From a virus (Duplodnaviria; Caudoviricetes): a DNA stretch of 64,000 nucleotides. The notes below the pieces were generated by a model that saw nothing but the letters and a program-made list of their open reading frames with translations, ran no database searches and was not told where the DNA came from. Within the stretch, counting starts at the first letter, position 1. The number at the start of each line of letters is the position of its first letter. This document shows positions 12,701-61,981 of the stretch, piece after piece. A program made the position numbers and the translations under genes. The DNA lies in the IMG/VR virus record IMGVR_UViG_3300021963_000003, positions 17-64,016 of that record; one strand, written 5' to 3'.

Positions 12701-12761
12701 TTGATTCTAAAAATTTTGCCGCTAAATCTTCTGAAGGTAATTGAATTCTCTGCTTACTCAT
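3750..12761 (-). CDS. Large polyvalent virion (ejection/cargo) protein
   Basis: 3003 aa; hydrophobic G/A-rich N-terminal region; FHEGTH zincin motif; GWY..GPKIGAFYSNL..TIDRW glycosylase-like domain; LPD38-like C-terminus (DFAQRG..IAYLNSSIQ). Confidence 0.75.
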   Translation of the reverse strand: MSKQRIQLPSEDLAAKFLESNSSKIQLPSEDLAAKFLSAQKKNPIQSDMDLSVAKPSMDGSQEEDGWFDKLKGYASNIADATIGLGKGAERRLVTGAQGIMTLGSSLQNPYENMPTGFAGGEKYKLSFDQRMKMAEGANKDLEKYKFEKAKGSSQLIDIDLKDGIDVKFTAPDAEAFGEAIGDNLTQLGLNMFTGGVGLMVNFAANFENNYQEARKQGIPADRALGESAVRGGIETYIEKKFGLENLISKGIAKQGSKEAIKQITESVLTKKAFDETAKKAVGILNPINLAVGFAKGFVPEAAEEFVQTVADNGAQQLFNYYETKRNEDDPNAKSNLYKTQDENGNDVPVEMWSKQTLVGGLNAAIYGGIMGQAGATFINSRSFNPTIYSTLQNSYESTGKKGLTESKEDLIKGVGKALANGKIDQAGHDNAMRNIDLMEQNITSFNQGSEIPAYTRYQLFNIKNNVVPEEVNQMALQFAKAVAPIETPTADAINNDIESGNTTEFAVPDMISNAPEGFAQFIDKTPVQENGQTVFKGMIPNSLIQANQNNTSQIQGIAQEASTALASLTDNERIVSVDDIKRLGQQGSPIFKDSKNQLAFEYAFQKNEKEFQRRARRINLLKSVAKDIETNNTAITPESFQQKIENLYKYNVGDSVFFNNKSTKILDISNDGQKLKLSGVQEQISASDNDLRLEDSVTEQAVQPQPEEGQAVAEQPIVEQPKPEVIPLAEEQQITTGRTMRDAIDELIPFTYRGETGEIYKQGNGVVVFESPNRVYEFGNIRDIGDRSIDEFDIIPQEMEIGDDFSVTIDGNKFTNKSQNPFKAITYDADGNAVSIKLDNQSGKTRVIKGTRAMLIDAKYKIKQLFDESTRDQLAAAADDAARQATATAETARQSTETATTAEGKPTEQAPSIAEQERAQLIREIAAKLVQEESQEMTENKQAIASLSSSLFSSGIKVEVLDTEGIRTKYGKQNVEQGMFLSNDGVVVINESMLPSEWGKTVIFHEGTHPIINIIRNTEPKLYNQLVSAAKEEAKTNPEVNKILQQIKNSPSYGDEFTRNDELVVEIIARVASGKLNLNDVKPSLKQAIVDFINKIAKVLGFNPVLNDTDQSALNRLATQISNVLKEGRDISEIVGVENVSKFANESTQFRVNEVFDGILEQLGISAAKESKKGITNYGVASALNKYYNKKFNALAIDDFGDNALKIVSDYATDETVFAMQKFGDKSGKGWYTEDFAAAVDRISEIYPAIKEKEDVREIATIIISIASNSTDVSTNLMRVIYGLETYQKTGKIPSDIGTGKALSAIATTINRYNRLLETFDNNPVKLKEFLQTVRPISESKKAIVEHLGVSSYAKVLSSDYATNPDWDDAQVLPTSIIIFGPKIGAFYSNLSGLGGTPTIDRWCIRTMFRYRGDMRAKVLSVDFDKFIKANNLEGQSKGNVLALAESHAKLFDRLLGGRGVYASLTKEQRNAEMSKYRQGKSIYSKSADVVNDIKDGLTDDIKNKTKFAKDFRTFTKETFEKVQDNILETTGEKLDISDIQAILWIFEKNLFGYLGVKQREDSTYSAAANRIVTSINNGNVSLESVINGTAKLADMKLDGVIEEGAMGDQYLIDDEDFKNGIDANKGDVNIEAQYSDLDRNYTMESTVADAGMTVAERQAWKDKNQVSQRQERNPIVQKTVEALNNGLATLDEYVAVVRTNMPIKLMPEVPKIPSFKEIVGALSDGALSKAGIVGLNKTFKDGERVASRLDIPAYNAYDTWVVSVHGSSDDKIKAYGQTAVLKNVEFRTKPQGAINIAIDKTKATIARIHGDWVNESPEAVHKRATELMNDPAWTQVGMNPFRHSFFYDKNDGTAVVSADEVIQVGALVLAKNVVKAPFGSQAFIDNFSMKNKLGETIQFSDINRDDKRIQFVRNNLNNYSKSELTEGLMEAFAMSREDAQRIVDKASADPLTPSLPQDNPDTSIPEGAKVNEKSSVVDAYNEGYDKAKKSLLDRAENLWEKTKKEIALQYDSKFYGRRNLAQASTQTSLAQSRLRNLNGIAYSAGQELSQIYNDIFGNGLQEQGEKKLNLMIFNLRILQVDKNTERQYQDEIEKLTVNFIDTIGRMPSSIESASITRQARTNVPVKKHGKTLDGRTDATSQTAEAFLDALRLEIGESEYDMLTARADMYRKVGNEQVIKLRDAGIISKEIADTYKDDFYSYRKTLDRLYGEQDMSITMLNGVSSVKGWAALSKEGTENFLEQDARLLLAESYIGTARAIAKNKLREAIFDENIKTDENGIQSAVIGKNGQQITFMRPANYLRDNQGNIRSNGKQLSVNNADEGFVNVPYKKDGVINYYQMETEMFNQIEGNNIVWKDGELSGTVSNIYYNTTDWANRQLTGFATRNNPVFWIGNISMDLQQQVFFSDIWTQGGIIESNVYSAGARALARAIKFSDFFGNNKEFVDKTLQEYISAGGAMDRMSTMKEQRQRSINIALVNGEENKKGQWLKTKAKAVLSYMNEKTELAMRLAAYDQSKKNLIKKFQDENGGANPNESDILKIQEIAAAQSRAYTDFAQRGTSLPNLNIAYLNSSIQAAGAAVEYIADNKGQTAAKLSQLVVGKFLGTMAIMALMGDAYDELDEYRKDLYSFLFAFDTKVKDANGNPIFVTADVKNNPTLVPFLGVTRTFAEMTMRQLQGKEQKDIPAADRFFDLLNVASPIPIPNVTSIEGIKNAIPKIISKHVLANAVIKGAMNYDSFRDKQIESDRDQELSPYMRGQDDPNIPYFYKAMARSMSNNTSQNQVSPKKMQAVAETFITAPSTNILIGLGYGVLSEIANKIIPAKSEGEFGESGLSGSKLLKTVTKRFATFTDAEKAEFRRNEELYKMSKEESMKYNDVDKSIDTILKNMYKADSKNFFTNVDKMAKESGYWDSDQLMERIDRKANLIDNNAIDRSYIKSDIANEVKILHYTKGAEGKAKLIKYMYDNDAAKARQVIDGLIDYGTSSKEAYETEDIYNELIKKK

Positions 12762-19828: not shown

Positions 19829-20473
19829 CTATTGAGCTTGTTGTTGACTAGCTAGTTCTGCTTGTGAAACCCTACCTCCGCTAATTATATTTAATACCTC
19901 TGTAATTACAGCAGACTCTACCTCAGGAGATATAGGTAACATATCATTGTCCGCAAACTGAGAAAAGTCAGATGCTAGTATGTTAATTATAACAGAACTT
20001 ATTGAACCGTTTCCTGCTAATGTAAGGTCTTTAGTAAAGAAAACCTTCTTGCCTTGAACGTAGTATCCAATTTGACCTTCTAAGTAACTTAGGTTAGCTC
20101 CTTGAAATACCAACACATCTTGTGAAGGAATAGGGATATACGGAGTCAGTGCAGCACCTGATGCAGCTATATTCCATATACCCATATCTAAGGGTAATGT
20201 TAATGGAATAACAGGTAATGTTATAAAAGAACGGTTGTTAGGTGCGTCAGCAGTTACCGATGCAGTATATTGAATAAGACTACACTTAGGTATATCTACT
20301 AATCCTGCCTTAAATGACTCAGCTACTTCAAGCTTTAATATCTTGTTGATAGCTTGGCTCACAAGAAGCATAACCTCCCTAATATCTATTGTATCTGACT
20401 CATTTCCGCGGTCCAAGAATCGAGTATAGATTCGCTGCACTTGCTCCGATAAAATTGCTTTTGTAACTGCCAT
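19829..20473 (-). CDS. Tail ring/adaptor protein
   Basis: Size, position, helical N- and C-termini. Confidence 0.55.
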   Translation of the reverse strand: MAVTKAILSEQVQRIYTRFLDRGNESDTIDIREVMLLVSQAINKILKLEVAESFKAGLVDIPKCSLIQYTASVTADAPNNRSFITLPVIPLTLPLDMGIWNIAASGAALTPYIPIPSQDVLVFQGANLSYLEGQIGYYVQGKKVFFTKDLTLAGNGSISSVIINILASDFSQFADNDMLPISPEVESAVITEVLNIISGGRVSQAELASQQQAQ

Positions 20474-21288
20474 TATGCGTATCTTAAATATGTGTTGTTC
20501 TTACATTTTCCATAAAGCTTTAATTTCAACATACTGTAACTTATATTGTATGAATCCGAAGCTTGTTTTATAGAATCGTATATTACTCCATTTTCTGTAT
20601 TATAAATATATATTTTATTCTTTCTATTTTGAGACATCTTTAGCTTAACCTGTTCTGAATTTCTTTTTCCATAGTTAGCATTTTTGTTGCCAATTCTATC
20701 TTCAGACATTTTTGCTTTTGTTTCTATAGTATGAGTCTTCCCTTTTATGGTTTGCCTCATTTTCTCTTTTGATTCTTCTGAATGATTTTTACCAAACATA
20801 GGATTATTTTCTCCTCCAAATGCAATGCTATGCTTCTTCAATCTCTCTGGAGACATTTTTTTGCCAAGTAATTTTTCTGAAATTTTTGCCTTACATTCTG
20901 CTGTACGAGTTTTTCCAAATTGAGGATGCCTTTCTTTTGCTAATTTACCTTTCATTGAATCACTCATCTTGTCTAATCTTTCTTGAGTAAAAACTACACC
21001 AAGAACCCCTTCGCCTCCATCAGTAAAATTACACAATATTCCATTATTTAAATTAATCCTTCCATATAATGAAATAAGCTCTTTTTCTTTTTCGCAAGCA
21101 CTTTCCCAAGAAATATCATCCATTACAATATCTATTTTATAACCATACTTTTCAGAAATTCTATTCCAAAGTTCATTTCTTCCATATTTATAATTAGCCC
21201 TATAATAATCTCCATTATCATCGCTTCCAATTCCAATATAGAACGGCTCGTTTTTGTCTAATCTTATATGTCTATAAACGTATGCCAT
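20473..21288 (-). CDS. GIY-YIG-like homing endonuclease with NUMOD3 repeats
   Basis: YVYRH...FYIGIG, N.TDGGEG and repeated H(S/T)EE.K.KM motifs; lower GC; inserted between ring genes. Confidence 0.85.
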   Translation of the reverse strand: MAYVYRHIRLDKNEPFYIGIGSDDNGDYYRANYKYGRNELWNRISEKYGYKIDIVMDDISWESACEKEKELISLYGRINLNNGILCNFTDGGEGVLGVVFTQERLDKMSDSMKGKLAKERHPQFGKTRTAECKAKISEKLLGKKMSPERLKKHSIAFGGENNPMFGKNHSEESKEKMRQTIKGKTHTIETKAKMSEDRIGNKNANYGKRNSEQVKLKMSQNRKNKIYIYNTENGVIYDSIKQASDSYNISYSMLKLKLYGKCKNNTYLRYA

Positions 21289-43671: not shown

Positions 43672-43788
43672 TTGTTCTTTTTTACTATTATTCTTTATTA
43701 CTATTATTCTTTATTACTAAGGGGTGCGATTTTCGAACGTTCGATTTTCGAAGGTTCGATTTTCGAACGTTCGATTTTCGTACTATGG
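43672..43788 (-). repeat. Gene-less iteron array plus AT-rich repeats (second origin-like element)
   Basis: About 3.6 copies of 15-bp CGATTTTCGAACGTT (43727-43780) and 3 copies of 16-bp TAGTAATAAAGAATAA (minus strand); inverted homolog of 51581-51680. Confidence 0.85.
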
Positions 43789-43817: not shown

Positions 43818-44480
43818 CTATACGCTTTCTAACTCCATCTTTTTACCAAATATATCAGATTGCCTAACTGTAAAATATTCTACATCTTCAATCTTATTTA
43901 TAAAATTTGAGTTCTTAGCAAGTACTACCGTATCACCCTGCTTTACGTCCAATTCTTTTTGATTCAACAAGGGCTTGCCAATATAAGAAAGCTTCGCAAA
44001 CTTGACAGACTTCTTCTTTTGAATTGAAGTGACAAGACCCGCGCCGCTTAGTGTCGCCTGTATCGTGCGACCCCCGACCTCCACGCTCTCAAACTCTTCC
44101 TCCTCTTCAACAATCTGACTACATAAAGTCCACCCTCCAACAGGTAATATATTGCCGTCCCTAACAACACAAAAAATCCAATAGTAAGGTACTTTATAAC
44201 TATTGCCGTATACACAATTTGTTTCATCTGACGTAGTTAAATAATGAAAATAAACTTTGTCTCCAACTCTCACCTCCTGCTCTATCTCAAAGCCTTCCTC
44301 GTTGTAGCACTTGCCTTGCGGGATAGCCTCGACTATACCATAAATTCTTGCGTGATGTGTTGGGTTAAAAAGAGGGTCAATAAACACCTCTAAACTTCCG
44401 TGTTTGTAGGTCGAGTCTAATGCCTCCTCAACGCGTACGATGACAGCATTTACTGCTGATTGCTTGATGTTGTAGTTCAT
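43818..44480 (-). CDS. GroES/Cpn10-like co-chaperonin with two domains
   Basis: EVRVGDKVYFHY and DVKQGDTVVL...I...EY...RQSDI motifs; start placed at MNYNIK. Confidence 0.65.
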   Translation of the reverse strand: MNYNIKQSAVNAVIVRVEEALDSTYKHGSLEVFIDPLFNPTHHARIYGIVEAIPQGKCYNEEGFEIEQEVRVGDKVYFHYLTTSDETNCVYGNSYKVPYYWIFCVVRDGNILPVGGWTLCSQIVEEEEEFESVEVGGRTIQATLSGAGLVTSIQKKKSVKFAKLSYIGKPLLNQKELDVKQGDTVVLAKNSNFINKIEDVEYFTVRQSDIFGKKMELESV

Positions 44481-45272
44481 CTTATTAATTATTGTCTGGT
44501 TTGTAAATTCAAAGTTATATAATATTTCCCAATATATCCACCATACTTTGCGTCTAAGCAACTTAAATAGTTTAGACAATAGATTGCCTTAAGTTTGTTT
44601 TTTAGTAGCGTAGGGTTGTCGAAAAAGGGTTATATATATTATCCGACACCAACCAAATGAAAACGACAAACGACATTTATTTACCGAGTGGGGTCAACTT
44701 CCTTAATCCAAATTCCAAAATTCCTAGGACATTTAGATAGTTGTCTAATTAACTAATTCTATACTTAGCCATTTTGCTAATTAGTTGTTTAGCTAACTAT
44801 ATATTTAGTCAATCATCTAACCAAAAGAAAAACTATGTTACCATATATTAGAAAGGAAATCTATATTTCTATTGTATCATTGTGATACATTATATATTAG
44901 TAGGGAAATGTGGCTCTATGTCGTTTAAAGGGGGATAATCCCCTTCCACATACCCTTTATATAACAAAACCCGCATTAACTGTATTATGTAGGTGTTTAT
45001 CCTACATCCATTTTAAGCCACCATATCTTTGATTTAAGAGACTTTACCCCTCTAAATGTCCAATCATAAGGGCTATGTCAAGATAATTGTTTACACGCAA
45101 TTTCAGTACTTTATTACCGATTATTTCCCTTATACATATAGTATATAAAGGGGAGTTTCTTGATAAAGTACTATTTCGCTATAAATCTGTTGTACTATTC
45201 TAATAAAATGGGTATTTCGTCGACACATTCCTGTATTTCGTCGCTATTCTATGATATTATTATTGCTATGTA

Positions 45273-45302
45273 TTGTATAAATAAAAAGGTTTAGTACATT
45301 TG
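45273..45302 (+). promoter_or_regulatory. Major early promoter (Bacteroidota sigmaA)
   Basis: TTG-N19-TACATTTG. Confidence 0.75.
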
Positions 45303-45304
45303 TA

Positions 45305-45720
45305 ATGTCGAACGAGACATATGGTTGCCACTACTTGAGTGGTGCAAAGGATAAGGGGGCTGAGGTGTAAATTAAGCGGGTTTCGTACCTAGCTGAGGAA
45401 CGCTGATAAAGTAGGGTGTAAGTACTCGAAAAAGTCACACAGGTTTAGAGCCAACGCCCCCCGATAGTATGCTTAAAGCGTTCTTTGATTTATTGACTTA
45501 TAAGTTATAAGCGTCACAGCCACGAAACGGCTGACTCCACAGGTAGATAGGGGACACCCCGCACCTGTACGCACTGAACTCCTGTGTTGTCGAGAGGTAG
45601 TCTAGCTTACTAGACGGACAAAGCCAAACCGCAACACTAACCGCAAGGTAGTTGACCCGAAAGCGTAGCAACGAATAGATTGGATGCAGGGCGGTTCGAT
45701 TCCGTCCCTATTCGCTACAC
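45305..45720 (+). ncRNA. Structured leader RNA/ncRNA with boxA-like sequence and T-loop
   Basis: ORF-free and GC-richer than its flanks; multiple stems; GTTCTTTGA; GNRA loops; GGTTCGATTCC. Confidence 0.6.
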
Positions 45721-45772
45721 AACAATGTGTAAATATATCGATTCGGTCTAGGTTAACCGATACATTAAAGCT

Positions 45773-46726
45773 ATGGCAACATACACAAAAACAGAAAAAT
45801 TAACTCAGTCGCAAATCATTGACAGCATCAACGACAGGGTAATCGCAGGACTACAGGACAAGGGACTTAGTTGGTTCAAACCATTTAAGGACGGCGTAAC
45901 AGGTAGCTTTCAAGCTCTCTCCGCATATGGCAGGGCTTACAAGGGTTGGAATCAATTTATCCTTTCGTCTATTGCTTTAGAGCGCGGCTGGGTCAACAAG
46001 TGGTACACCTTTGCACATATCCAAAAATGCGAGGGCTACATTAATAAAGGCGAGTCAGGTACTAACATCTTTATGTGGCAAATAAGCTACGCAGTTGAGC
46101 GTAACGGAAAGACCACGTTTTACCCTGTGTTAGCGAGCGTACCTGACGCCGACAAGAAAGACGCTAAGAAAGTATTCTACCTTAAGCAGTGGAAAGTATG
46201 GTCTATATCACAGACTAACATACCACACAGCACACCTAACCTGCCTGTGACAGAGGAAGAGACGGAGCTTGACTCCCACGCAGACGCTGAGGCTATCCTG
46301 CAGGGTTGGGGCAAGGTTGTCCCTACCAAGCACACGAATCAAGGGCGGGCTTATTACTCCCCGTCTGCTGACTTTATCCATATGCCTGAAAAGACATCTA
46401 AGATGTGGCAGTCAAGCGGTGACTATTACAAGGTATTCTTTCACGAGGCTATCCACAGCACAGGTCACAAGTCTAGACTTAACCGCCTTGAGGAGACCGC
46501 GCGATTTGGTAACGAGGAGTACAGCAAAGAGGAACTAGTGGCGGAACTTGGAGCGTTGTACCTAGAGACTATCACAGGAATCGATTGCCTAGTGGACGAC
46601 TTCAAGAACAGCCAAGCATACATCAACGGATGGATTAAGGCAATCGCTAACGACAAGAACCTTATAATGCAGGCATCTAAGAAATCACAAGAGGCTGTAG
46701 CTTTAATATTATCTAACGTAAACTAA
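45773..46726 (+). CDS. ardC: Antirestriction protein ArdC (ssDNA-binding domain plus zincin-like domain)
   Basis: W.KP, Y.G.N, W.TF, KGE.G; AYYSP..D.I.MP, HEAIHSTGH.SRL.R, YS.EELVAELGA, YI.GW. Confidence 0.9.
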   Translation: MATYTKTEKLTQSQIIDSINDRVIAGLQDKGLSWFKPFKDGVTGSFQALSAYGRAYKGWNQFILSSIALERGWVNKWYTFAHIQKCEGYINKGESGTNIFMWQISYAVERNGKTTFYPVLASVPDADKKDAKKVFYLKQWKVWSISQTNIPHSTPNLPVTEEETELDSHADAEAILQGWGKVVPTKHTNQGRAYYSPSADFIHMPEKTSKMWQSSGDYYKVFFHEAIHSTGHKSRLNRLEETARFGNEEYSKEELVAELGALYLETITGIDCLVDDFKNSQAYINGWIKAIANDKNLIMQASKKSQEAVALILSNVN

Positions 46727-46768
46727 TCTAAAACCTTGCGGAGTACAGGTCAACCGCTAACTAAAATC

Positions 46769-46957
46769 ATGACTAAAATTATCTTATCAATCGTAGCGGT
46801 AGCGTTTACTTTACTTTACATCTTTTGTGCATTTGTATCTTGGGACTTAGGTGTCCTAGCCCACACCACAGAGGGCTGTCGCATAGGCTTTGTTTTATCA
46901 GGTCTATTCCTGTCAAGCATTGGAACTATTATATACTCAGAAACTCAAGAATCATAA
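46769..46957 (+). CDS. Small 2-TM early protein
   Basis: Hydrophobic ORF; ATG just after motif copy 1. Confidence 0.55.
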   Translation: MTKIILSIVAVAFTLLYIFCAFVSWDLGVLAHTTEGCRIGFVLSGLFLSSIGTIIYSETQES

Positions 46958-47088
46958 TGAGAAAGCTATTTAATCTAATCAAAGAAATCTACCAAACAGA
47001 TAAACAAGGCTTATATTTTATGGTAGCGTGGGCGGTAATGTTCTACGTATTGTATTGGCTTATCTTACCTATAATTAGGGGCGTGTAG
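46957..47088 (+). CDS. Small single-TM early protein
   Basis: MRKLFNL...; TAATG coupling. Confidence 0.5.
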   Translation: MRKLFNLIKEIYQTDKQGLYFMVAWAVMFYVLYWLILPIIRGV

Positions 47089-47147
47089 GTTCACGTTCCA
47101 CTATCATCTTTAACCTCACGATGTATAGGCAATCGTTATATTATATT

Positions 47148-47360
47148 ATGGAATATTGGAAAGTTATTGAAGGAAATCACAACACCCACACCGATGGGCT
47201 AAGTTTTGCAGAGGCAAGCAATCTTGCAATGGAATTAAATGATGATTTCCCAAACAAATTTTATTGTCCGTTTCCCGACCCCGACTACAGAGAACCACAA
47301 CAACTGCGTTTCGTTCCAAGAGGTACGATGGATGGATGGGAAGACCAATTTGATTATTAA
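47148..47360 (+). CDS. Hypothetical early protein
   Basis: ORF after motif copy 2. Confidence 0.55.
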   Translation: MEYWKVIEGNHNTHTDGLSFAEASNLAMELNDDFPNKFYCPFPDPDYREPQQLRFVPRGTMDGWEDQFDY

Positions 47361-47378
47361 ACTTAAACAAAATACATT

Positions 47379-47654
47379 ATGAAAACACCATTTGAACAAG
47401 CAGTTGAACAAGTTAGACAAGGTCGAATACAAGCACCCAAAGTATTAATGGGGAAAATGGATATGGATTACTTTGCCTATCAGCTAGTAGTCCATAAATA
47501 TAATCTAGGAATTATGGCTATGGGGATGACGTGTACAGGCGTCAAGTTTACAGACATCAAGAAGTACTACGGACTCAAGGGTCGGTCAGCTAAGGCTTGT
47601 AAGCCTGAGATTGAAGAGTTATTTAATAAGTACAAATCAAGTTTAAATCAATAA
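47379..47654 (+). CDS. Hypothetical early protein
   Basis: 91-aa ORF with A-rich start context. Confidence 0.6.
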   Translation: MKTPFEQAVEQVRQGRIQAPKVLMGKMDMDYFAYQLVVHKYNLGIMAMGMTCTGVKFTDIKKYYGLKGRSAKACKPEIEELFNKYKSSLNQ

Positions 47655-47699
47655 ACCTTTAACCTCACGATGTATAGGCTAATCGTTGTATTATCTAAT

Positions 47700-48206
47700 A
47701 TGAGAACAATTGAAATTAACCTTTACAAGTTCGACGAACTTAATGAGCAGGCTCAAGCTAAAGCAATTAAAGCCCATCAAGAAAATACCAATTATGATTG
47801 GTGGGATTCTATCGAGATTAATGCAGAAGAAAGCGGTGTTATTATAGAATCCTTTGACACAGACAAGGAAGACATAAGCGTATCATTCAAGTGGGAGGCT
47901 CACGATGTAGCTAACGCTTTGGTTAAGTTTTGGGGAGCAGATAGCGACATAGGTAAGATATGTCAAACGTTCCTTGATAAAAGAAATGTATTATATAAAA
48001 AGTATGCGGGAGATGAGGCTAGTACATACAATGAGAAGTTGTATGAATCGGAAGATGAATTGGTGGATGATTTCCATGCCGACGTGTCCCATTACTTTCT
48101 TAAGCAATTAAAGAATGAGTTAGAATGGATTGAATCCGACGATTACGCAAGGGGATACCTAAGCGATATGGACTACGACTTTATGGAAGACGGAACTGAA
48201 TATTAA
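47700..48206 (+). CDS. Acidic early protein
   Basis: LYKFDEL...AQ.KAI N-terminus and Y.F.EDG C-terminus; strongly acidic. Confidence 0.65.
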   Translation: MRTIEINLYKFDELNEQAQAKAIKAHQENTNYDWWDSIEINAEESGVIIESFDTDKEDISVSFKWEAHDVANALVKFWGADSDIGKICQTFLDKRNVLYKKYAGDEASTYNEKLYESEDELVDDFHADVSHYFLKQLKNELEWIESDDYARGYLSDMDYDFMEDGTEY

Positions 48207-48249
48207 ACCTTTAACCTCACGATGTATAGGTCAATCGTTGTATTATATT

Positions 48250-48657
48250 ATGACTAGAGAAGAAGATATTTGGGCTTGCACTGACTGCGGGCAATTGTAC
48301 GGGCGTCACGATATGTGGTTTGAGGGCGAAATATGCGAGAAATGTTACGCAGAGATTAACTACGCTGTAGTAGACTACGACAAGATGCAGTTGACTCTAT
48401 GGTTTAAAAAAGAAGAGTTTGTCTTTGACTTAACCAATGGCGACATCGGGGACTTTTGGGACGGGTTCGAGACATCAGACGAGGAGGTCTATGACGTTAA
48501 CTACCTTAAAGAAAAAGGATTCGATGACGGCGTCGAAGTATTCGGAACTTTCTTAGACGAAGACGGGTGTTTTAATATAGACACATCTAACTCATACTTT
48601 ATTAATATCAAAGAAAGAATAGGAGACGAAAATAATTATCTAAACTACAGAAAATGA
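48250..48657 (+). CDS. Acidic Zn-finger-containing early protein
   Basis: CxxC..CxxC; D/E-rich. Confidence 0.55.
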   Translation: MTREEDIWACTDCGQLYGRHDMWFEGEICEKCYAEINYAVVDYDKMQLTLWFKKEEFVFDLTNGDIGDFWDGFETSDEEVYDVNYLKEKGFDDGVEVFGTFLDEDGCFNIDTSNSYFINIKERIGDENNYLNYRK

Positions 48658-48896
48658 AAGAGCAAATAAAGAACTTAAAGTCAATGATTGACGCCTGCTA
48701 CGCCTACGAGGGAGCAGAGCGGGACTCGTACAACTACCATACATACATCAAACAATTTGAAGGCATATTAGGTAGCGTATTATTTGAGAAGGTCTATACA
48801 GAATACCTTCAGCACCTTAAGGATAATTTTAAAATAGTTGAGTCAATATACAAAGACTCCGACGGACTAACATACAACTCACTACAAGCAATATGA
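48654..48896 (+). CDS. Hypothetical protein
   Basis: ORF coupled to neighbours. Confidence 0.55.
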   Translation: MKEQIKNLKSMIDACYAYEGAERDSYNYHTYIKQFEGILGSVLFEKVYTEYLQHLKDNFKIVESIYKDSDGLTYNSLQAI

Positions 48897-49147
48897 ACAA
48901 GCAAATATTTAAGATAGGCAGGGCGGACGTAATCAAGTACTACGCCACCTCTCCAAGCGGTAAGCTAATCACACGCTACCAAGAGGACGACGGCTTTACG
49001 TCACATCGTTCAGTAATATCTAAGGTCGTGGAGGCTCTACCCGATTGGTACGACGAGGGGATGGTATACGTCCACATCGTATGCGAGGACAAGGGTATAG
49101 CTAAGGACATCGGCGTCAGACTACCTAAGTTCACGTACAACAATTAA
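48893..49147 (+). CDS. Hypothetical protein
   Basis: ATGA-coupled ORF. Confidence 0.55.
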   Translation: MNKQIFKIGRADVIKYYATSPSGKLITRYQEDDGFTSHRSVISKVVEALPDWYDEGMVYVHIVCEDKGIAKDIGVRLPKFTYNN

Positions 49148-49196
49148 TCCCACTAGCAACAATAACCTCTCGATGTATAGGCAATCGTATACTAAA

Positions 49197-49463
49197 ATGA
49201 ATGTAAGAGAAATGTTTGAGGGCAACGACGCCCAAATAAAGAACAGCTACGCCTACATAATCGGCAGGTTTGCGTATCGTCGGATGTACACCAAGAACGA
49301 GACTCCAGAAGACCACGCAATTAAAAAGATTTGCGACATCTACTTTTATGCTCCTGAGATGATATCAGTCAAGCAGTTAGATTGGGTCATTAGGTACGCC
49401 ACTAAGTTTAGGATTGAATATCCTATTACGTCGGCACAATCAGTGGTTTCGTCTACAAATTAG
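49197..49463 (+). CDS. Hypothetical protein
   Basis: ORF after motif copy 5. Confidence 0.55.
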   Translation: MNVREMFEGNDAQIKNSYAYIIGRFAYRRMYTKNETPEDHAIKKICDIYFYAPEMISVKQLDWVIRYATKFRIEYPITSAQSVVSSTN

Positions 49464-49514
49464 GTAATATATTAAAACAAGTACGTAAATTTAAATTCAA
49501 CTAAACCAACAAAA

Positions 49515-49745
49515 ATGACAAATCAGAGAACAAAGATTATCGACTGCATCATGGAATGCACTCTACCCGAGACACAAGCACACTCAATTGATTCAATAGC
49601 TAGGATGTACACCGACGACCTAGTGGATGTACTTATCACTGAGTATTATCTTTTGCGTGAGCAATACGACAATTTAATAATCAAATCAAACGAGGACTCT
49701 CAGAAACTTTTAGATAAGATAGAGCAACTCAATTCAAGGCTATGA
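49515..49745 (+). CDS. Hypothetical protein
   Basis: ORF with A-rich start context. Confidence 0.55.
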   Translation: MTNQRTKIIDCIMECTLPETQAHSIDSIARMYTDDLVDVLITEYYLLREQYDNLIIKSNEDSQKLLDKIEQLNSRL

Positions 49746-50080
49746 TGCACACACTAGACGGGATGTTTGAGAATCCAATGGATGACTTGAACAAGATTTT
49801 AAAGGATTTAAATATTAAAAAAACAAGAGGAGTAATGACAAAATTAGTATTATATATTAATCCATTTATTTGTACGATAGCTATATCGGCTAGGATTAAT
49901 AAGGTAGAGGAGCGTTCGGTTACCGACTACAATCCATTTGACTACCCAAGCGTGTCTTATTTCTCTTTGGCAGACAGGACATTTAAGTTAACAGTGGATT
50001 ATAACGACTCCTTTGAGGTACTTGTAGAAGACCACGACGATGGAACGGCTCAACCTATGACAATCAAGTACGTAAAATGA
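49742..50080 (+). CDS. Hypothetical protein
   Basis: ATGA-coupled ORF. Confidence 0.5.
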   Translation: MMHTLDGMFENPMDDLNKILKDLNIKKTRGVMTKLVLYINPFICTIAISARINKVEERSVTDYNPFDYPSVSYFSLADRTFKLTVDYNDSFEVLVEDHDDGTAQPMTIKYVK

Positions 50081-50359
50081 AGAAAGATAACACCTATTCA
50101 GAACTAATAGAATGTGTCGTGGCTATATTCTTTGTGGCACTTGCATACTATGTAATTGTACTACTATAAACTAATCTAAACTTATGAAAACATTACTAAT
50201 AACGTCGGGGTTCACGTTCCTCGCATCACTTGTCGGTTGTTCTATTACAGAAGACCAAGCATTTAAGAATGACCTATGTGTCTTTGGGTTGATGTGTCTA
50301 TTCTCGTTTATGTATGCGTCACACCTAGTCGGAACTAATAAACAAAATAGGAAATAATT

Positions 50360-50644
50360 ATGAAAGAAAACAAAAGACTTATCATTGAGGCTATCGCCTT
50401 TGCAATATTGCTTGTGTCGGCTCTAATTATATGGGTCAATACGATTCTAAAGGAACCCGAAAGAACCTTCAAGCAAGAGCCATTAACGGCGTCACAAGTG
50501 GACGTTAAGATGTTAGAGTACGACGGCTACGAGAATGTATACAAAGAGATGGGAACTCTACAATCTGAGGACATATATCCAGAATCCATTGACAATAGAT
50601 TATATACTACAAAAGGAAGATTAAAAAACAATTTAAATAAATGA
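50360..50644 (+). CDS. Membrane-anchored hypothetical protein
   Basis: N-terminal TM helix. Confidence 0.55.
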   Translation: MKENKRLIIEAIAFAILLVSALIIWVNTILKEPERTFKQEPLTASQVDVKMLEYDGYENVYKEMGTLQSEDIYPESIDNRLYTTKGRLKNNLNK

Positions 50645-50647
50645 ACA

Positions 50648-51022
50648 ATGTTTAACACGAACAGAAAGATTGAGTACACCTATATGGGAGGCACTAAGAA
50701 ACTAGTAAGTAAGATTATTGACGGGGTTAGAATGGACACGTGGGTTACGAGCAGTGACCACAGAGAGATGTGCATCTACAAGATTCAAGACCATAACGTA
50801 AACCTAAGGGAACTTAGACAGGACGGAGACTCGTTTAGGAAGACCAAGTATAGGGTCAAGTATCTTTTGCTCCATAAAATTGAGATGGAAAACATTGGAG
50901 AGTTTATCCACGCGTCTGAGGACTACAGGACTATGTGGTTCACCAATCCGTCACACCCCGAGGGCAAGAAGATAGGCATACCTATTATGAACATTGTCTC
51001 CTGCGAAAAGGTAAGGGACTAG
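50648..51022 (+). CDS. Hypothetical protein
   Basis: 124-aa ORF. Confidence 0.55.
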   Translation: MFNTNRKIEYTYMGGTKKLVSKIIDGVRMDTWVTSSDHREMCIYKIQDHNVNLRELRQDGDSFRKTKYRVKYLLLHKIEMENIGEFIHASEDYRTMWFTNPSHPEGKKIGIPIMNIVSCEKVRD

Positions 51023-51267
51023 TGGCTCTGTCTGAAGACGACATCGCCTACTACAATGAATTTGTAGGGGCGTCTGCGTTGCATCAGCAATGTGACAGGG
51101 CGGTAATGCAGTTGCATAAACTGCACAGAGAGAGGGAGCTAGATGAATGGGCAAGAGTCCTAAGCTACGCAACACCTGATATGCCAGCGTTTGAGATTAT
51201 CCTTAATAAAGTAGAGGACTTAGTGGACTCTATTGACAAGGCTAATGCAATACTAAAATTGATATAA
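50935..51267 (+). CDS. Hypothetical protein (true start uncertain)
   Basis: Fills the gap before the initiator gene; helical C-terminus. Confidence 0.45.
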   Translation: MVHQSVTPRGQEDRHTYYEHCLLRKGKGLVALSEDDIAYYNEFVGASALHQQCDRAVMQLHKLHRERELDEWARVLSYATPDMPAFEIILNKVEDLVDSIDKANAILKLI

Positions 51268-51304
51268 ATCTTATGAGAAAGACACCGATTAATAAATTAA
51301 TCTT

Positions 51305-51994
51305 ATGAGCAAGACTAAAATAAGCGGACACTTTGGGCAGGCACCTAACGAACTACTAAACGACCCTGCTATAAGTTTAAAGGCTAAGGGGCTTTATGTT
51401 TATATGCAATCTAAGCCCGACGATTGGGTGTTTTCTCTTGACAGGATTTGTTCACAAAATAAAGACGGCAAGGCGTCGGTTCGCAACAGCATTAATGAGC
51501 TATGCGACGCGGGGTTCTTGTCTAAAGAAAGGCTGAATAAAGAAGAGGGAGGGACTATTTATTTATATAGACTAACAGACCCATCGTTCGAAAATCGAAC
51601 GTTCGAAAATGCGACGATGGGAAAATCGAACGTTCGAAAATCGAACGACTTAGTAATAAAGAATAACAGCAAGAAAGAAATAATAGAAACAAAGATAGTA
51701 GATGACCGATTCGAAAAGTTTTGGATTCTATACAACAAGGAGATTCAAAAGGACAAGTGCTATAGCGAATGGAAGTTTATAAACACAATAGACAAGGACA
51801 AGATTCTTAAGACCCTACCGCTATACATCGAGTCAACTCCAGATGTACAATTTAGAAAGCACCCATTGACCTACCTAAGAAACAAGGCTTGGTTAGACAA
51901 AGTCTTTATTCCTAAAAGCCAAAACCAAGACGCGAAAGCAACTCCAAGACCCGCCGAGCCCGCCGACAGAATTATTGTACCTGATAACTATTAA
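51305..51994 (+). CDS. Replication initiator (HTH N-terminus, lambda O-like organisation)
   Basis: PNELLND..IS.KAKGLY.Y..S.PDDW.F...EL...G; internal iteron linker; FE.FW..Y...HP.TYL...W.D C-terminus; upstream of dnaB. Confidence 0.85.
   Translation: MSKTKISGHFGQAPNELLNDPAISLKAKGLYVYMQSKPDDWVFSLDRICSQNKDGKASVRNSINELCDAGFLSKERLNKEEGGTIYLYRLTDPSFENRTFENATMGKSNVRKSNDLVIKNNSKKEIIETKIVDDRFEKFWILYNKEIQKDKCYSEWKFINTIDKDKILKTLPLYIESTPDVQFRKHPLTYLRNKAWLDKVFIPKSQNQDAKATPRPAEPADRIIVPDNY
51581..51690 (+). promoter_or_regulatory. Putative replication origin (iterons plus AT-rich region) inside the initiator gene
   Basis: Four GAAAAT-centred units of about 15 bp containing TCGAACGTTCGA palindromes, followed by an A-rich tract. 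Confidence 0.75.
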
Positions 51995-52006: not shown

Positions 52007-53434
52007 ATGAAGAACACACTTGTTGACACAATGCTAGAGGACGACGTTATTAGCTACCTACTAGAACAAACACACTACATTAAAGAAGCTAATAAAATAA
52101 TAGATGCCGACTCGTTTACTAGCACACTAGCTAGGGCGTCATACGTTGCGATGGTTGAATTATCTCAGGTCAGCAATACGTTCACACGTTTCGATGTATT
52201 TCGTGTGCTTAAATCAAAAGAATCGGAGTTAGGCGTTGACACCTCTGCGGTACTAAAGATGATGAGCAAGAGAATATTTGACTTGACGGACGTATGCTTT
52301 CAGTTGAAGGAGCTTGAGGTCAAGCGTAACATTGCGGGCATCATATCTAGGGTAAACTCTCAGATACTTAACGGCGAGGACTCGGCTATGATTCAGTCTA
52401 CTTTGTTTAGTGGAGTTGATTCGTTGCAGGCAGAGAAGACCAACGAGGAGGTTACGTCTATCAAGGACATATACGACAACGTAATCAAGGACTTGGGCGA
52501 CAACGCGGGAAAGAACAAGTTCTCAGGCATCGACACAGGAAGCAGGCTACTTAACTACACGTTAGGTGGATGGCAGAGCGGTATGATAGTAATCGCGGCT
52601 CGACCTTCGATGGGTAAGACTATTGTAGGCTTGGAACACGCTAAGGCAGGGGCTAAGTCTGGGGCTAATGTATTGTTTCTTTCATTAGAGATGCCAAAGG
52701 AGTCCTTGTTGTATCGAGTTATCTCGTCTGAGGCAACTGACTATAAGTACTCAGACTTGGGGGCATACAGGATAAGCAAGGAAGACATCGATATAATTTC
52801 TAAGTCAGACGCTAGGGGTCTAAGGGACTTGCCCATATTCTTTTATGATTCAGATAACAGGGATATGAACTATCTTTCCACTATCATCACCGCTGAGTGC
52901 AGGAAGAACAAGATAGACCTAGTCATCATAGACTATATGCAACTAATCAGGGACAATCAGATTAAAGACCAGAGCGACTTTGCTCAGGTGTCATCTGTAT
53001 CAAGTAAGATTCAAAAGCTAACACGTAAGCTCAACATCCCTATCATTGCATTGTCTCAGCTATCACGTTCAATAGAGTCTAGGACTGACAAGCGACCAAG
53101 TTTATCTGACCTGCGTTCAAGTGGCAACATCGAGCAGGACGCGTCTATTGTCATAGGGCTATACCGCCCTGACTACTACGCAATGTCAGAGGCAAGAGCT
53201 CAGAACCTACCTGACCCCGAGTTTACCCACGAGCTAGACTATGTGATACTCAAGAACAGGAACGGACGCACAGGTTCAGCTATTAGGTATTGTGACGTGA
53301 TGACCAACAGAGTAAGCGACGACAAGGAGACCTTGTTTAGGTTCACCCAACCTGATATATTATTTAGGGACTCGGTGATTAATACGATTGACAACGGATT
53401 TGATAATAACACCATAGTAGAAACCCCATTTTAA
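52007..53434 (+). CDS. dnaB: Replicative DnaB-like helicase
   Basis: AARPSMGKT, SLEM, IIDYMQL, LSQLSR, DLRSSGNIEQDA, KNRNG. Confidence 0.95.
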   Translation: MKNTLVDTMLEDDVISYLLEQTHYIKEANKIIDADSFTSTLARASYVAMVELSQVSNTFTRFDVFRVLKSKESELGVDTSAVLKMMSKRIFDLTDVCFQLKELEVKRNIAGIISRVNSQILNGEDSAMIQSTLFSGVDSLQAEKTNEEVTSIKDIYDNVIKDLGDNAGKNKFSGIDTGSRLLNYTLGGWQSGMIVIAARPSMGKTIVGLEHAKAGAKSGANVLFLSLEMPKESLLYRVISSEATDYKYSDLGAYRISKEDIDIISKSDARGLRDLPIFFYDSDNRDMNYLSTIITAECRKNKIDLVIIDYMQLIRDNQIKDQSDFAQVSSVSSKIQKLTRKLNIPIIALSQLSRSIESRTDKRPSLSDLRSSGNIEQDASIVIGLYRPDYYAMSEARAQNLPDPEFTHELDYVILKNRNGRTGSAIRYCDVMTNRVSDDKETLFRFTQPDILFRDSVINTIDNGFDNNTIVETPF

Positions 53435-53435
53435 A

Positions 53436-53609
53436 ATGACACCAAAAGAAAAAGCAGAAGAAATGTATAGGACATATATTGACTATACTCATGGACATTT
53501 TAATTGTAAACAATGTGCATTAATTGCAGTAGATGAGATGATAGAATTATGCGAGTCTTATGTAGCACCTTATTATTATGAAGTTAAAAAAGAAATAGAG
53601 AAACTATGA
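53436..53609 (+). CDS. MTPKEKA-family paralog 1 (57 aa, below ORF-track cutoff)
   Basis: MTPKEKAEEMYRTYIDYTHGHFNCKQCALIAVDEMIELCESYVAPYYYEVKKEIEKL. Confidence 0.75.
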   Translation: MTPKEKAEEMYRTYIDYTHGHFNCKQCALIAVDEMIELCESYVAPYYYEVKKEIEKL

Positions 53610-53797
53610 CACCAAAAGAAAAAGCAAAAGAACTTGTAGATAAGTTCACTGTTGTAGGATTACAACAAAGAGCAGAAGGCTATCAATGTGCATTAATTGC
53701 AGTAGACGAGATACTAAAAGTAGTATTAATTTATAATGATACGCAAGCAGAAGTTACTTATTGGCAAGAAGTTAAACAAGAAATAGAAAAGCTATGA
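53606..53797 (+). CDS. MTPKEKA-family paralog 2
   Basis: Same MTPKEKA / CALIAVDE / EVK.EIEKL blocks. Confidence 0.75.
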   Translation: MTPKEKAKELVDKFTVVGLQQRAEGYQCALIAVDEILKVVLIYNDTQAEVTYWQEVKQEIEKL

Positions 53798-54042
53798 CAC
53801 CAAAAGAAAAAGCAGAACAATTAGTTGTTGAATTTTATAGAAATATTCCAAACGATGAAATAGGAGAAGATAAAGAATCAGCTAAAAAATGTGCATTAAT
53901 TGCAGTTGACGAAATAATTAAATCAAATCCTACCTACCCATGGGCTAAAGATGTTGGAGCAAAAGCACAAGGCTTATATGAAAATGTAATATTCCCAACA
54001 AATTACTGGAGAGATGTAAAATCAGAAATATTACAACTATGA
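53794..54042 (+). CDS. MTPKEKA-family paralog 3
   Basis: Same three blocks. Confidence 0.75.
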   Translation: MTPKEKAEQLVVEFYRNIPNDEIGEDKESAKKCALIAVDEIIKSNPTYPWAKDVGAKAQGLYENVIFPTNYWRDVKSEILQL

Positions 54043-54755: not shown

Positions 54756-54798
54756 ATGCTCACCTTCGGTTCACACCGATTAATAAATTAATCTTATG
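54756..54798 (+). repeat. Hairpin plus translation-start repeat family (representative copy)
   Basis: ATGCTCACCTTCGGTTCACACCGATTAATAAATTAATCTTATG; related copies at 51282, 58237 and 61808, and on the minus strand before 3537 and 43527. Confidence 0.8.
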
Positions 54799-55116
54799 AC
54801 AATAGAAACTAAATTTAACATAGGCGACTACATTTACTTTGGAAACGAGGAATCATGTAATCAGGGATATGTGAAAGATATTAACATTACCTTTTTTGGA
54901 GGCAATCACATAATAAGATATACAGTTGACACAATGTTTAATATTCTACCAAGATTAATTACCAACGAAAAAGATAGGTATAGAGACTTTGATGAGTCAG
55001 TGCTTCATTCATCTCCTAATGAATTATTGCAAAGGCAAATCAAAAGATATGAGGTTAAGATAAAGAATATGAATGACAAGATAGAAGAAATCAAAAAACA
55101 AATTAAACCTCTATAA
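54796..55116 (+). CDS. Hypothetical protein (SH3/KOW-like N-terminus)
   Basis: IETKFNIGD.IY motif. Confidence 0.6.
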   Translation: MTIETKFNIGDYIYFGNEESCNQGYVKDINITFFGGNHIIRYTVDTMFNILPRLITNEKDRYRDFDESVLHSSPNELLQRQIKRYEVKIKNMNDKIEEIKKQIKPL

Positions 55117-55118
55117 GA

Positions 55119-55892
55119 ATGAATGTATTTAAAGAGTTAGCAAAGTTTAATATCATTAAGTACCACGACGCACCCCATAAGTATTTTATCGGAGAGCAGG
55201 AACTTATATCAGGTACTGCATTTATTGAGCAGTTCAAAGTAAAGTTCGACAAGCAGGGCACTGCAACCAAGTCAGCCAAGAAGAAGAATATTCCTGTCGA
55301 CGAGGTGCTATCTGATTGGGCATACAAGGGAGACTTTGCTCGCACAAAAGGAACGCTCCTGCATAACTACGCTGAGAACTATTGGCAGAACAAGGTGTAT
55401 CCGTACGACGACACTATCTACACAGAAAGATTCGGCGAGGGGGCAATGGCTGAGAGATTAGATGCGTGCAAGGCACACTTCCATAACTTCTATTTGAAGG
55501 CTAAGAAGAACCTAATACCTGTAGCAATGGAGCTAGTTATTGGGGATGCCGAGATAGGGATTGGTGGGATGGTTGACTGTTTGTTTTGGAACGACAAGTA
55601 CAATGAATATCAAATCTGGGACTACAAGACTAACAAGGAAATCAACGAGTTCTCTAAGTTCAGGACACGACTCAAAGCACCCCTAAATTTCTTGCACGAG
55701 TGCGAGCTTGAGACCTACTCAATACAACTAAACTTGTACAAGTATATCATCCAAAAGAATACCGACATCAAGATAGGGAAGTGCTTTCTGGTGCACCTGC
55801 ACGAAGAACAGGAGGACTACAACATCATTGAATGCAAGGAGTACCAAGAAATAATACAACTACTTATCAACTACGTAAAGAAAACTAAGTAA
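55119..55892 (+). CDS. PD-(D/E)XK exonuclease (Cas4/RecB-like)
   Basis: H.Y, GT.LH.YAE, E, G.VD, I.DYKT, Y..QL..Y motifs. Confidence 0.85.
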   Translation: MNVFKELAKFNIIKYHDAPHKYFIGEQELISGTAFIEQFKVKFDKQGTATKSAKKKNIPVDEVLSDWAYKGDFARTKGTLLHNYAENYWQNKVYPYDDTIYTERFGEGAMAERLDACKAHFHNFYLKAKKNLIPVAMELVIGDAEIGIGGMVDCLFWNDKYNEYQIWDYKTNKEINEFSKFRTRLKAPLNFLHECELETYSIQLNLYKYIIQKNTDIKIGKCFLVHLHEEQEDYNIIECKEYQEIIQLLINYVKKTK

Positions 55893-55948
55893 ACATTTTG
55901 AATTATAAATAATAATGTTTAATTTCACTCACCAAACAAAAAGAAATA

Positions 55949-58236: not shown

Positions 58237-58307
58237 AATGCTCACCTATCGGCTCACAACGTTTAATAAATTAATCTTATGAATACAACGTTTAATAAAT
58301 TAATCTT

Positions 58308-58532
58308 ATGACAAAGAAAATTAAATTAATGCATTACCGACTAGACGACGAGGTCTGTGTCGTGGACTACAACGACTTAAAGGTTTCTTACTACGGAAAG
58401 AACGGGCATCACTACAACTTATTAGGGGCAGTGAGCGACAGAATTGAAGCTTTTTTAATGAGAAGAGGTTGGATTAAGACTACAGCAGCTACCTTTGCTA
58501 AACTAAAAGAGGAACTATATGAGGTGGCTTAA
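58308..58532 (+). CDS. Hypothetical protein
   Basis: ORF after the duplicated start repeat. Confidence 0.6.
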   Translation: MTKKIKLMHYRLDDEVCVVDYNDLKVSYYGKNGHHYNLLGAVSDRIEAFLMRRGWIKTTAATFAKLKEELYEVA

Positions 58533-60354: not shown

Positions 60355-60383
60355 GTACCTTGAAAAATAATTTATGTAAATGT

Positions 60384-60413
60384 TTTGAATTATAAATAAA
60401 ATAGTTAACTTTG
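60384..60413 (+). promoter_or_regulatory. Bacteroidota sigmaA promoter
   Basis: TTTG-N18-TAACTTTG; a near-duplicate region lies at about 55897-55940. Confidence 0.7.
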
Positions 60414-60430
60414 TAACACCAAACAAGAAA

Positions 60431-61806: not shown

Positions 61807-61981
61807 TAATGCTCACCTACGGCTCACACCGTTTAACAAGCTAAACTTATGGAAAGAACATTTAATCAGGTGTACCAGCATATCTACAACCAACTAGATT
61901 TACACCACCAAACAAAAATACAGCAAGCTAAGGACAAGTTTGAGAAACAAAAGCAGGCTGAGAAAAACGAAAAATCAAATT

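Follow-up and report, generated by a model that had tools for sequence, protein, structure and literature searches.

A small covarying hairpin element ahead of start codons in the early region of a Bacteroidota-type phage, shared with many phages and mobile elements

The early region and its repeated element

The window analysed here is a 64,000-nt stretch of viral DNA (Duplodnaviria; Caudoviricetes; IMG/VR record IMGVR_UViG_3300021963_000003, positions 17 to 64,016), which represents a complete phage genome of Bacteroidota type (64 kb); its first 111 bases recur at its end, and the record is that of a 64,016-base virus with direct terminal repeats. In the early region, five copies of a short element, AAA-ACCUY-(5-bp stem)-GUAUAGG-N2-3-(stem), were identified on the sense strand, the stem of each ending 8–13 nt before the next ATG (Table 1). 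All five lie between small early open reading frames (ORFs), 6–24 nt past the stop codon of the preceding co-directional ORF, the first beginning 6 nt past the ardC stop codon (46724–46726). A preliminary description of this DNA, made from the sequence alone, had listed five intergenic copies near ATGs, and all were found exactly where it had placed them.

Four copies (class A) read ACCTC-N-CGAT-GTATAGG-N2-3-ATCG-N′, and the copy at 46733 (class B) reads ACCTT-GCGGA-GTAC-AGG-TCA-ACCGC; the latter aligns gap-free with the other four, with stem pairs 1 and 4 changed from A-U to G-C. A search of the window with ACCTCWCGATGTATAGG gave 4 exact matches and 5 matches at up to three mismatches, including a chance site at 19920. 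Shuffled windows gave a mean of 0.26 matches, and 5 were reached in 0/100 shuffles; a chance origin of the window repeats is excluded. No further copies were found in the window by the covariance model (next best E = 1), which the five copies match by construction because they are part of its seed. Two looser hairpins mentioned in the preliminary description, one before ardC and one at about 47080, are also present (Table 1); the stem of the former, UCGGU/ACCGA, occurs in full members of the family elsewhere (L367).

Table 1. Coordinates of the element copies and of other features in the window.
Feature	Position	Strand	Composition	Remarks
Copy 1, class B	46730–46757 (core 46733–46757)	+	AAA-ACCUU; stem GCGG(A)/(A)CCGC; loop GUAC-AGG-UCA	ATG 46769, 11 nt past stem end
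Copy 2, class A	47110–47136 (core 47113–47136)	+	ACCUC 47113–47117; stem 47118–47122 with 47132–47136; loop GUAUAGGCA	ATG 47148, 11 nt past stem end
Copy 3, class A	47659–47686 (core 47662–47686)	+	ACCUC 47662–47666; stem 47667–47671 with 47682–47686	ATG 47700, 13 nt past stem end
Copy 4, class A	48211–48238 (core 48214–48238)	+	ACCUC 48214–48218; stem 48219–48223 with 48234–48238	ATG 48250, 11 nt past stem end
Copy 5, class A	49162–49188 (core 49165–49188)	+	ACCUC 49165–49169; stem (U)CGAU/AUCG(U), U.U closing mismatch	ATG 49197, 8 nt past stem end
Degenerate relative	45743–45760	+	TCGGT-CTAGGTTA-ACCGA; stem UCGGU/ACCGA; loop CUAGGUUA; no 5′ ACCU	12 nt ahead of ardC ATG (45773)
Looser hairpin	47082–47095		CGTG-TAGGTT-CACG	
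Candidate host-type promoter	45273–45302	+	TTG-N19-TACATTTG	
ArdC	45773–46726	+		
DnaB	52007–53434	+		
66-nt repeat	55877–55942 and 60364–60429	+		two copies
Host-type promoter match	60384–60413	+	TTTG-N18-TAACTTTG	within second 66-nt repeat copy
Late genes	1 to ~44.5 kb	−		large terminase, portal, SU10-like capsid protein, 3003-aa polyvalent protein
Early and replication genes	from 45.7 kb	+		include ArdC and DnaB

Hairpin covariation and strand

In an alignment of 58 distinct sequences, fitted with a covariance model, both-side changes occurred in 4/5 pairs of the hairpin stem, 96.2% of cells were paired, and the covariation score was reached by 0/500 shuffles. The hairpin is proven by this covariation, and the compensatory change that had been proposed for the copy at 46733 (pairs 1 and 4 swapped) was borne out. 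Eight complementary stems were seen altogether, namely ACGAU/AUCGU, GCGAU/AUCGC, CCGAU/AUCGG, UCGAU/AUCGA, GCGGU/ACCGC, UCGGU/ACCGA, GCAAU/AUUGC, and GCAAG/CUUGC, the last two being independent stems. Within the loop, the segment GUAU changes in divergent copies to GUAC, GUGU, GUAA, GGAU, or GCCU.

At the closing pair, the genome sites listed showed G.U 26 times versus A.C 3 times, and among the class B sites listed the ACUG arm, which forms G.U, occurred 7 times versus none for the ACCA arm, which forms C.A. Every true copy is oriented in the same way as its downstream gene. Tolerance of G.U, avoidance of A.C, and constant orientation therefore point to a sense-strand RNA hairpin, as opposed to a site in double-stranded DNA. 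Together with the spacing to start codons given below, orientation and G.U tolerance support the earlier proposal of a cis-acting, strand-specific element tied to start codons.

Proposed pairing of the 5′ flank with the loop

The preliminary description had read the element as an H-type pseudoknot, in which CCU of the 5′ flank pairs with AGG of the hairpin loop. The part of this proposal that concerns the hairpin stem holds, and the CCU/AGG stem turned out to be essentially invariant: both arms are near-constant, and no CCU/AGG pair is doubly changed among the 58 distinct sequences. When AGG was fixed in the scan and the 5′ flank left free, ACCUC was found in 59/59 true sites. A transition-tolerant scan returned CCT/AGG 55 times, a CCT/GGG wobble and a compensated TCT/AGA once each, and two doubtful sites; in the sole viral site where A replaces G27, U also replaces C12. 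A few U.G wobbles were seen in this stem as well. Because CCU/AGG almost never varies, covariation neither proves nor refutes the pseudoknot.

The 5′ ACCU is probably base-paired with AGG(U) of the loop, which would give a compact H-type pseudoknot. Its loops would comprise 1 nt over the 5-bp stem 2 (L1), 4 nt (L2), and 2–3 nt over the 3–4-bp stem 1 (L3), lengths that would be sterically feasible. The single base that links CCU to the hairpin is C in 59/59 class A stems; among the class B sites listed, U accounts for 69, G for 4, and C for 1–2. This base goes with the identity of stem pair 4, which is a hint of the pseudoknot: such behaviour would be expected of loop 1 if its base were placed in the stem 2 groove.

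Distribution in phages and bacterial genomes

The element had been treated as private to this phage, a view that did not survive the database scans, in which it was found in hundreds of phages and mobile elements. Exact-pattern scans placed it in more than 200 viral contigs and more than 120 bacterial loci (mostly Bacteroidales). The exact scan of IMG/VR with ACCTCNCGATGTATAGG gave 87 loci, with a matching 3′ arm N1-4-ATCG in all but six, and with the closing pair left free the 76 unique viral sites comprised A-U 48, U-A 7, C-G 4, G-C 2, G.U/U.G 4, and other 11. A class B scan returned at least 121 loci (at least 108 unique sites), with closing pairs, among the matches listed, of G-C 55, U-A 12, A-U 8, and C-G 7. 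Close relatives of the window phage hold 14, 9, and 2 copies. Both class A (AACCUC-ACGAU...AUCGU) and class B (AACCUU-GCGGU...ACCGC) were seen in these relatives, the two classes occur together in the same genomes, and in the window and two further contigs (G001, G002) class B comes first in transcription order and class A after.

Cultured carriers include Flavobacterium columnare phages (FCV-1 and relatives), the Flavobacterium phages hattifnatt and snusmum, Riemerella phages, and the crAss-like cr50_1 and Kolpuevirus ‘frurule’; gut microviruses carry it as well. Among the non-pathogenic cultured pairs are Flavobacterium sp. LMO6/LMO9 with snusmum or hattifnatt, for which a copy is placed at about 12564 of NC_048832, and Bacteroides cellulosilyticus WH2 with ‘frurule’. 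When one genome per prokaryotic species was scanned, at least 127 loci were obtained, mostly in Bacteroidales metagenome-assembled genomes, and Chryseobacterium, Epilithonimonas, and Flavobacterium were other bacterial carriers among the matches listed. Within genomes, the copies are grouped in islands that also hold VapE/BT4734-type primases, HU-HIG proteins, and genes resembling defence genes. In other sampled genomes of the phylum, the exact pattern was present in 0/400 and a covariance-model match, under strict filters, in 0/150; the element is rare in chromosomes. Among plasmids, one Chryseobacterium plasmid gave a class A match, and plasmid matches to class B were weak or within coding sequence only.

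Two of the islands (L380:1084-1464 and L381:1457-2230; Prevotella, Bacteroidaceae) each contain an ORF with a sigma-70 region 2 match only. One of these ORFs is fused to an NT5C nucleotidase domain, and VapE-type primase and HU-HIG genes adjoin.

Position relative to start codons and Shine-Dalgarno sequences

The stem ended 7–13 nt ahead of an ORF-starting ATG at 97/121 unique genome sites (counted, as are all genome sites, among the matches listed) and at 47/78 unique viral sites. At random positions in the same loci this spacing was found in 133/2420 (genome) and 83/1560 (viral) cases, i.e., about 5%. In annotated records, the gap between motif and coding sequence was 9 nt in a capybara microvirus, 6 nt in the crAss-like cr50_1, and 11 nt in Kolpuevirus. 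An ATG inside class A copies was in frame with the downstream ATG at 22/49 viral and 30/86 genome sites, and class B copies contain no internal ATG; these frame counts ruled out the element as a coding N-terminus (MYR...).

A Shine-Dalgarno (SD)-like sequence precedes 3/69 genes in the window, 26/40 in contig G015, and 23/34 in contig G018. The preliminary description had linked the element to hosts without SD sequences, a link that proved too restrictive once it was also found in phages whose genes carry canonical ones. In phages of SD-using hosts, the motif lies directly 5′ of the SD sequence, with the ATG 14–33 nt off, and among the matches listed an SD-like sequence stood between motif and ATG at 19/40 long-spacer class B sites and 0/59 short-spacer sites. 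One SD-type contig encodes a portal protein distantly like the portals of Bacillus phages, and in this Firmicutes-type phage a class B copy follows an ArdC-like gene, as in the window. No gene shared as a partner was found among the upstream or downstream genes of carriers; these genes are diverse, and therefore no protein partner stands out.

The spacing also bears on a hairpin-dependent pause of RNA polymerase at the start codon, which would let a ribosome load and couple transcription to translation. A 5-bp stem with a 9–10-nt loop that ends 8–10 nt before the ATG puts the U of AUG 10–12 nt from the stem base. The his-leader pause hairpin shares this geometry, as does the G-10/Y-1/G+1 pause, which is enriched at start codons. 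Pause hairpins, however, need neither a conserved loop nor a conserved 5′ flank, and in the SD-type phages the ATG is 14–33 nt off; we regard a pause signal as distinctly improbable.

Promoters, terminators, and transcript ends

The Bacteroidota promoter consensus has two boxes, one at −33 (TTTG) and one at −7 (TAnnTTTG), with about 19 nt between them. A candidate of this type ahead of ardC (45273–45302) could drive the whole early operon that holds the copies, and no other TAnnTTTG was found on the plus strand between 45303 and 56196. The two copies of a 66-nt repeat, the second of which contains the other match in Table 1, are likely host-type promoters for middle genes. Upstream of the element itself, no −33/−7 or −35/−10 element at a fixed distance was found in four site sets, in which only ttAAA was conserved, and the element was rejected as a Bacteroidota sigma-A promoter, there being no such element in the motif or at a fixed distance from it.

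The element might instead be a promoter, read by a polymerase or sigma factor that is specific to the phage or has gone unrecognised, with a transcription start near TATAGG and the window array serving as early promoters. Such a role would account for a highly conserved repeat before early cassettes and for the fixed order of the two discrete classes (B, then A) in the window, G001, and G002; T7-group promoters have a start region similar to TATAGG, and the two Bacteroidales islands with a sigma-70 region 2 ORF carry the motif. It is countered by several results: no RNA polymerase or sigma gene was recognised in the window (Pfam over 78 ORFs, PHROGs), the motif occurs in 6-kb microviruses and chromosomal islands, pairs spanning the putative start site covary and show sense-strand tolerance of G.U, a promoter would leave the tight ATG spacing unexplained, and host-consensus promoters lie elsewhere in the phage. 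We consider this promoter slightly less probable even than the pause signal.

Specific promoter types were rejected individually. T7-group promoters are conserved over 23 bp, end in TATAGG, and are read by a phage-encoded T7-like RNA polymerase; no RNA_pol hit was obtained in the 78 ORFs or with PHROGs, and the motif is present in microviruses and chromosomal islands. N4-type promoters, which are used by a giant virion RNA polymerase, form a 5–7-bp stem with a 3-nt loop on the template strand; the loop of the present element is 9–10 nt long, G.U is tolerated on its sense strand, and no DxDxD or other polymerase motif was found in the 3003-aa virion protein. Lack of DxDxD in this protein also led to the rejection of a promoter for a crAss-type virion polymerase. 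For phi14:2, the portion of a preprint consulted reports no common motif upstream of early transcripts (10.1101/2020.03.07.982082).

As an intrinsic terminator the element was rejected as well, the stems being 5 bp long, U-runs following some copies only, and no terminator-like site being called on the plus strand in 44400–51400. An RNA processing or stability module is a different matter: the element could be a cleavage site between cistrons, or a cap protecting the downstream 5′ end or the upstream 3′ end from exonucleases or from decay that depends on the 5′ end, as RNase III sites of T7 or 5′ stabiliser hairpins do. Copies are intercistronic in the window, lie 7–14 nt past the upstream stop in 3/3 inspected phages of SD-using hosts, and follow a co-directional ORF that ends at most 40 nt upstream at 29/74 genome sites; some are followed by U-runs, and ACCU tucked into the loop would hide a 5′ end. 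On the other side, the sequence does not change between hosts from different phyla, which are not known to have any one sequence-specific RNase in common, the 5-bp stem is weak, a stabiliser would not need tight ATG spacing, and no plus-strand terminator-like site was found in the stretch just named. Processing or stabilisation is rated as unlikely, while retaining an appreciable chance.

A proposed leader acting on translation initiation

The explanation that we tentatively prefer, at somewhat less than an even chance, is an RNA leader acting on the translation initiation of the next ORF. It is suggested by the position of the element, the placement of SD sequences behind it, the sense-strand hairpin, the lack of a fixed promoter element, and the lack of an intervening terminator. 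The element, about 28 nt long on the sense strand, consists of a 5′ A-run, ACCUY, and a weak 5-bp hairpin whose 9–10-nt loop carries the invariant G(U)AUAGG. In phages and mobile elements it stands immediately ahead of the region where ribosomes would bind early or accessory genes, in many cases inside polycistronic operons, and there it may act as a structured landing or insulating module that defines the accessible start region, or as a switch; its partner might be the ribosome, a ligand, or a protein.

Several points weigh against this reading. The hairpin is weak (−3.2 to −5.3 kcal/mol) and folds no better than shuffled sequences (z −0.96 to +0.56), and the 58-sequence alignment leans toward the model to which it was fitted. 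With respect to the pseudoknot, one metagenomic lineage, which was the only addition from the single-pair scans and the metagenome scan, combines ACCUC with an uncompensated AGA, one Prevotella copy combines AACUC with AGG, and the coupling of linker base and pair 4 could stem from descent from two founder sequences. About 20–40% of sites have a more distant ATG or none nearby, and the tight ATG spacing may merely reflect compact intergenic regions. No convincing complementarity to Chryseobacterium 16S rRNA was found, only scattered 6–8-mers without a plausible site. The 16S rRNA of the Chryseobacterium chromosome (L392) ends in GGAACATCTCATTT, and therefore the usual CCUCC anti-SD core is absent, yet Chryseobacterium carries the motif. 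Finally, all large samples were gathered by exact patterns, which entails an ascertainment bias.

A bolder version of the leader, which we consider unlikely but worth stating, would make the 25-nt pseudoknot a start-site selector complete in itself and functional in hosts of different phyla, through contact either with a conserved portion of the small ribosomal subunit or with a universal small molecule. If so, translation of early and anti-defence genes would be driven or gated independently of host SD usage, by a prokaryotic module resembling an internal ribosome entry site or a riboswitch that moves between Bacteroidota viruses and viruses of SD-using bacteria.

How start codons are chosen without SD pairing in Bacteroidota and their phages is an open question on which the element bears, and since several cultured phage–host pairs carry it, its role is directly testable. 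Should it control translation or mRNA fate, it would provide a new gene-expression tool for Bacteroidota, a marker for early and accessory gene cassettes, and a new entry for RNA family databases.

Comparison with known elements

In line with the preliminary description, which had recognised no named family, Rfam 15 gave no hit at gathering score in the whole window and none on the motif at E ≤ 10 (44500–49400). Ten other motif-bearing loci yielded no credible hit, the overlap with a microRNA model scoring 23.6 bits against a cutoff of 46.5 bits (E = 2.9). Among the literature matches listed, papers containing GATGTATAGG were unrelated, and GAUGUAUAGG was found in none. A keyword search of the literature returned no description of the motif, and a catalogue of candidate structured RNAs, of which excerpts were considered (Fremin and Bhatt 2023, PMC10690425), may list it; the element is apparently undescribed.

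The closest behavioural parallel is provided by the Start-Associated Sequences (SAS/ESAS) of Cluster K mycobacteriophages, which in the sections consulted are described as a 13-bp asymmetric repeat, GGGATAGGAGCCC, with a working AGGAG SD sequence 3–7 nt before the start; their function is given as unknown, the authors propose a role in translation initiation, and RNA hairpins in ESAS are little supported (PMC3203893). Going by those sections, both kinds of element have one orientation, lie in the non-structural half of the genome a few nucleotides before starts of unrelated genes, are rare in host genomes, and share ATAGG. SAS, however, is confined to one phage cluster, whereas the present element spans many phage types and hosts and holds its AGG about 17–21 nt from the ATG, within a covarying hairpin loop. 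Identity with SAS/ESAS was thus rejected on sequence and spacing, insofar as these are given there.

Repeats of the EGeRS1/2 type in pLS20-family plasmids, in the portions of the reports consulted, are DNA-level promoter/operator sequences before early ‘establishment’ operons that include ardC (PMC8708921, PMC6294495). Like the element they are repeated before several early operons; no likeness in sequence or structure was seen in those portions.

Three features set the element apart from SAS/ESAS and also from the promoter-early stem-loops (PeSLs): its sequence, the small covarying hairpin whose loop is invariant, and an occurrence that is not limited to one phage type or host phylum. PeSLs of T4-type phages (Arbiol et al. 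2010) are reportedly near-identical hairpin cassettes of about 30–50 nt between small early ORFs, linked to gene shuffling, and are said to combine an early promoter for the host sigma-70 with a stem resembling a terminator. Both repeat a hairpin between small early ORFs, but for the present element no promoter was found at a fixed distance, its stem is 5 bp with a large conserved loop, and its range extends far beyond one phage group. By analogy, it could be a DNA-level recombination joint or module boundary, kept for swapping early gene cassettes. Its copies border on small early ORFs that are unrelated to one another, the genes behind it are also unrelated in other phages that lack kinship with this one, and an ArdC-like gene followed by a class B copy recurs in both the window and the Firmicutes-type phage. 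Since compensatory stem changes, strand-specific G.U tolerance, and ATG spacing would go unexplained, and recombination could be a secondary consequence instead of the function, we hold this to be very unlikely, the least probable of the explanations considered.

Among structured RNA leaders, preQ1-I is the smallest known riboswitch aptamer, a 25–34-nt H-type pseudoknot with a 5-bp first stem that is conserved across phyla; it sits immediately 5′ of the ribosome-binding site, and its loop pairs with a 3′ A-rich tail. The element resembles it in size, in the 5-bp stem, in placement 5′ of the ribosome-binding site, and in sequence conservation beyond a single phylum. It was rejected as a preQ1-I member on account of the missing Rfam match, a proposed pairing partner 5′ of the hairpin, and downstream genes unrelated to queuosine. 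The pseudoknot operators of the T4 gene 32 leader and of E. coli rpsO/S15, which control the access of ribosomes, are each bound by the protein that they regulate and serve one specific gene. They too are small leader pseudoknots (here a proposed one) near a start codon; unlike them, the element precedes many unrelated genes.

A further candidate is a ligand- or protein-responsive switch, a mini-riboswitch-like pseudoknot that would open or close the start region when it meets a small molecule or a conserved cellular factor and that would be comparable to preQ1-I in size and placement. The unpaired bases are invariant across microviruses, crAss-like phages, podoviruses, and phages of SD-using hosts, no protein is common to all carriers, the covariation of the linker base with stem pair 4 resembles that of a tertiary contact, and in SD-type copies ACCUY could instead pair with AAGG of the downstream SD sequence. 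Set against this, the controlled genes share no pathway and no result suggests a ligand, the loop segment GUAU varies in divergent copies, and sites without an SD-like sequence offer no obvious alternative pairing partner. Such a switch appears improbable, less so than a pause signal or a promoter.

Other features of the phage genome

The terminases of Flavobacterium, Cellulophaga, and crAss-like phages share about 32% identity with that of the window phage. The 3003-aa protein of the virion module (3750–12761, minus strand) matches only LPD38, a polyvalent-protein domain, and a stretch like gp82 of mycobacteriophage L5, and contains a zincin-like HEGTH motif. A NUMOD3 homing-endonuclease gene (20473–21288, minus strand) is inserted among the virion genes.

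Between the host-type promoter and ardC lies a G+C-rich non-coding stretch (45303–45735, plus strand), in which ARAGORN and Rfam found nothing and whose fold z-score is −0.98. Near its 3′ end is a tRNA-like piece with the T-arm GGCGGTTCGATTCCGTC (45690–45706), flanked by CGAATAG/CTATTCG, and the upstream part of the spacer (~45048–45319) is 76% identical in the relative G002.

Four tandem 15-nt units resembling GGTTCGATTTTCGAA occupy 43723–43780, in the interval that separates the late genes from the early ones, and a related copy lies at 51616–51643 inside the replication-initiator gene; these units are candidate iterons or a candidate origin. The small ORFs at 53436–54042 (plus strand; 57, 63, and 82 aa) are three paralogues in tandem, and all match phrog_21441. 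A second repeat family, ACACCGWTTAATAAATTAATCTTATG, has five plus-strand copies (51282–51324, 54773–54815, 58256–58298, 58285–58327, and 61826–61868), each of which contains a small palindrome, TTAAT..ATTAA, and continues into an ATG; this family may be a further signal linked to start codons, or else a middle-gene operator.

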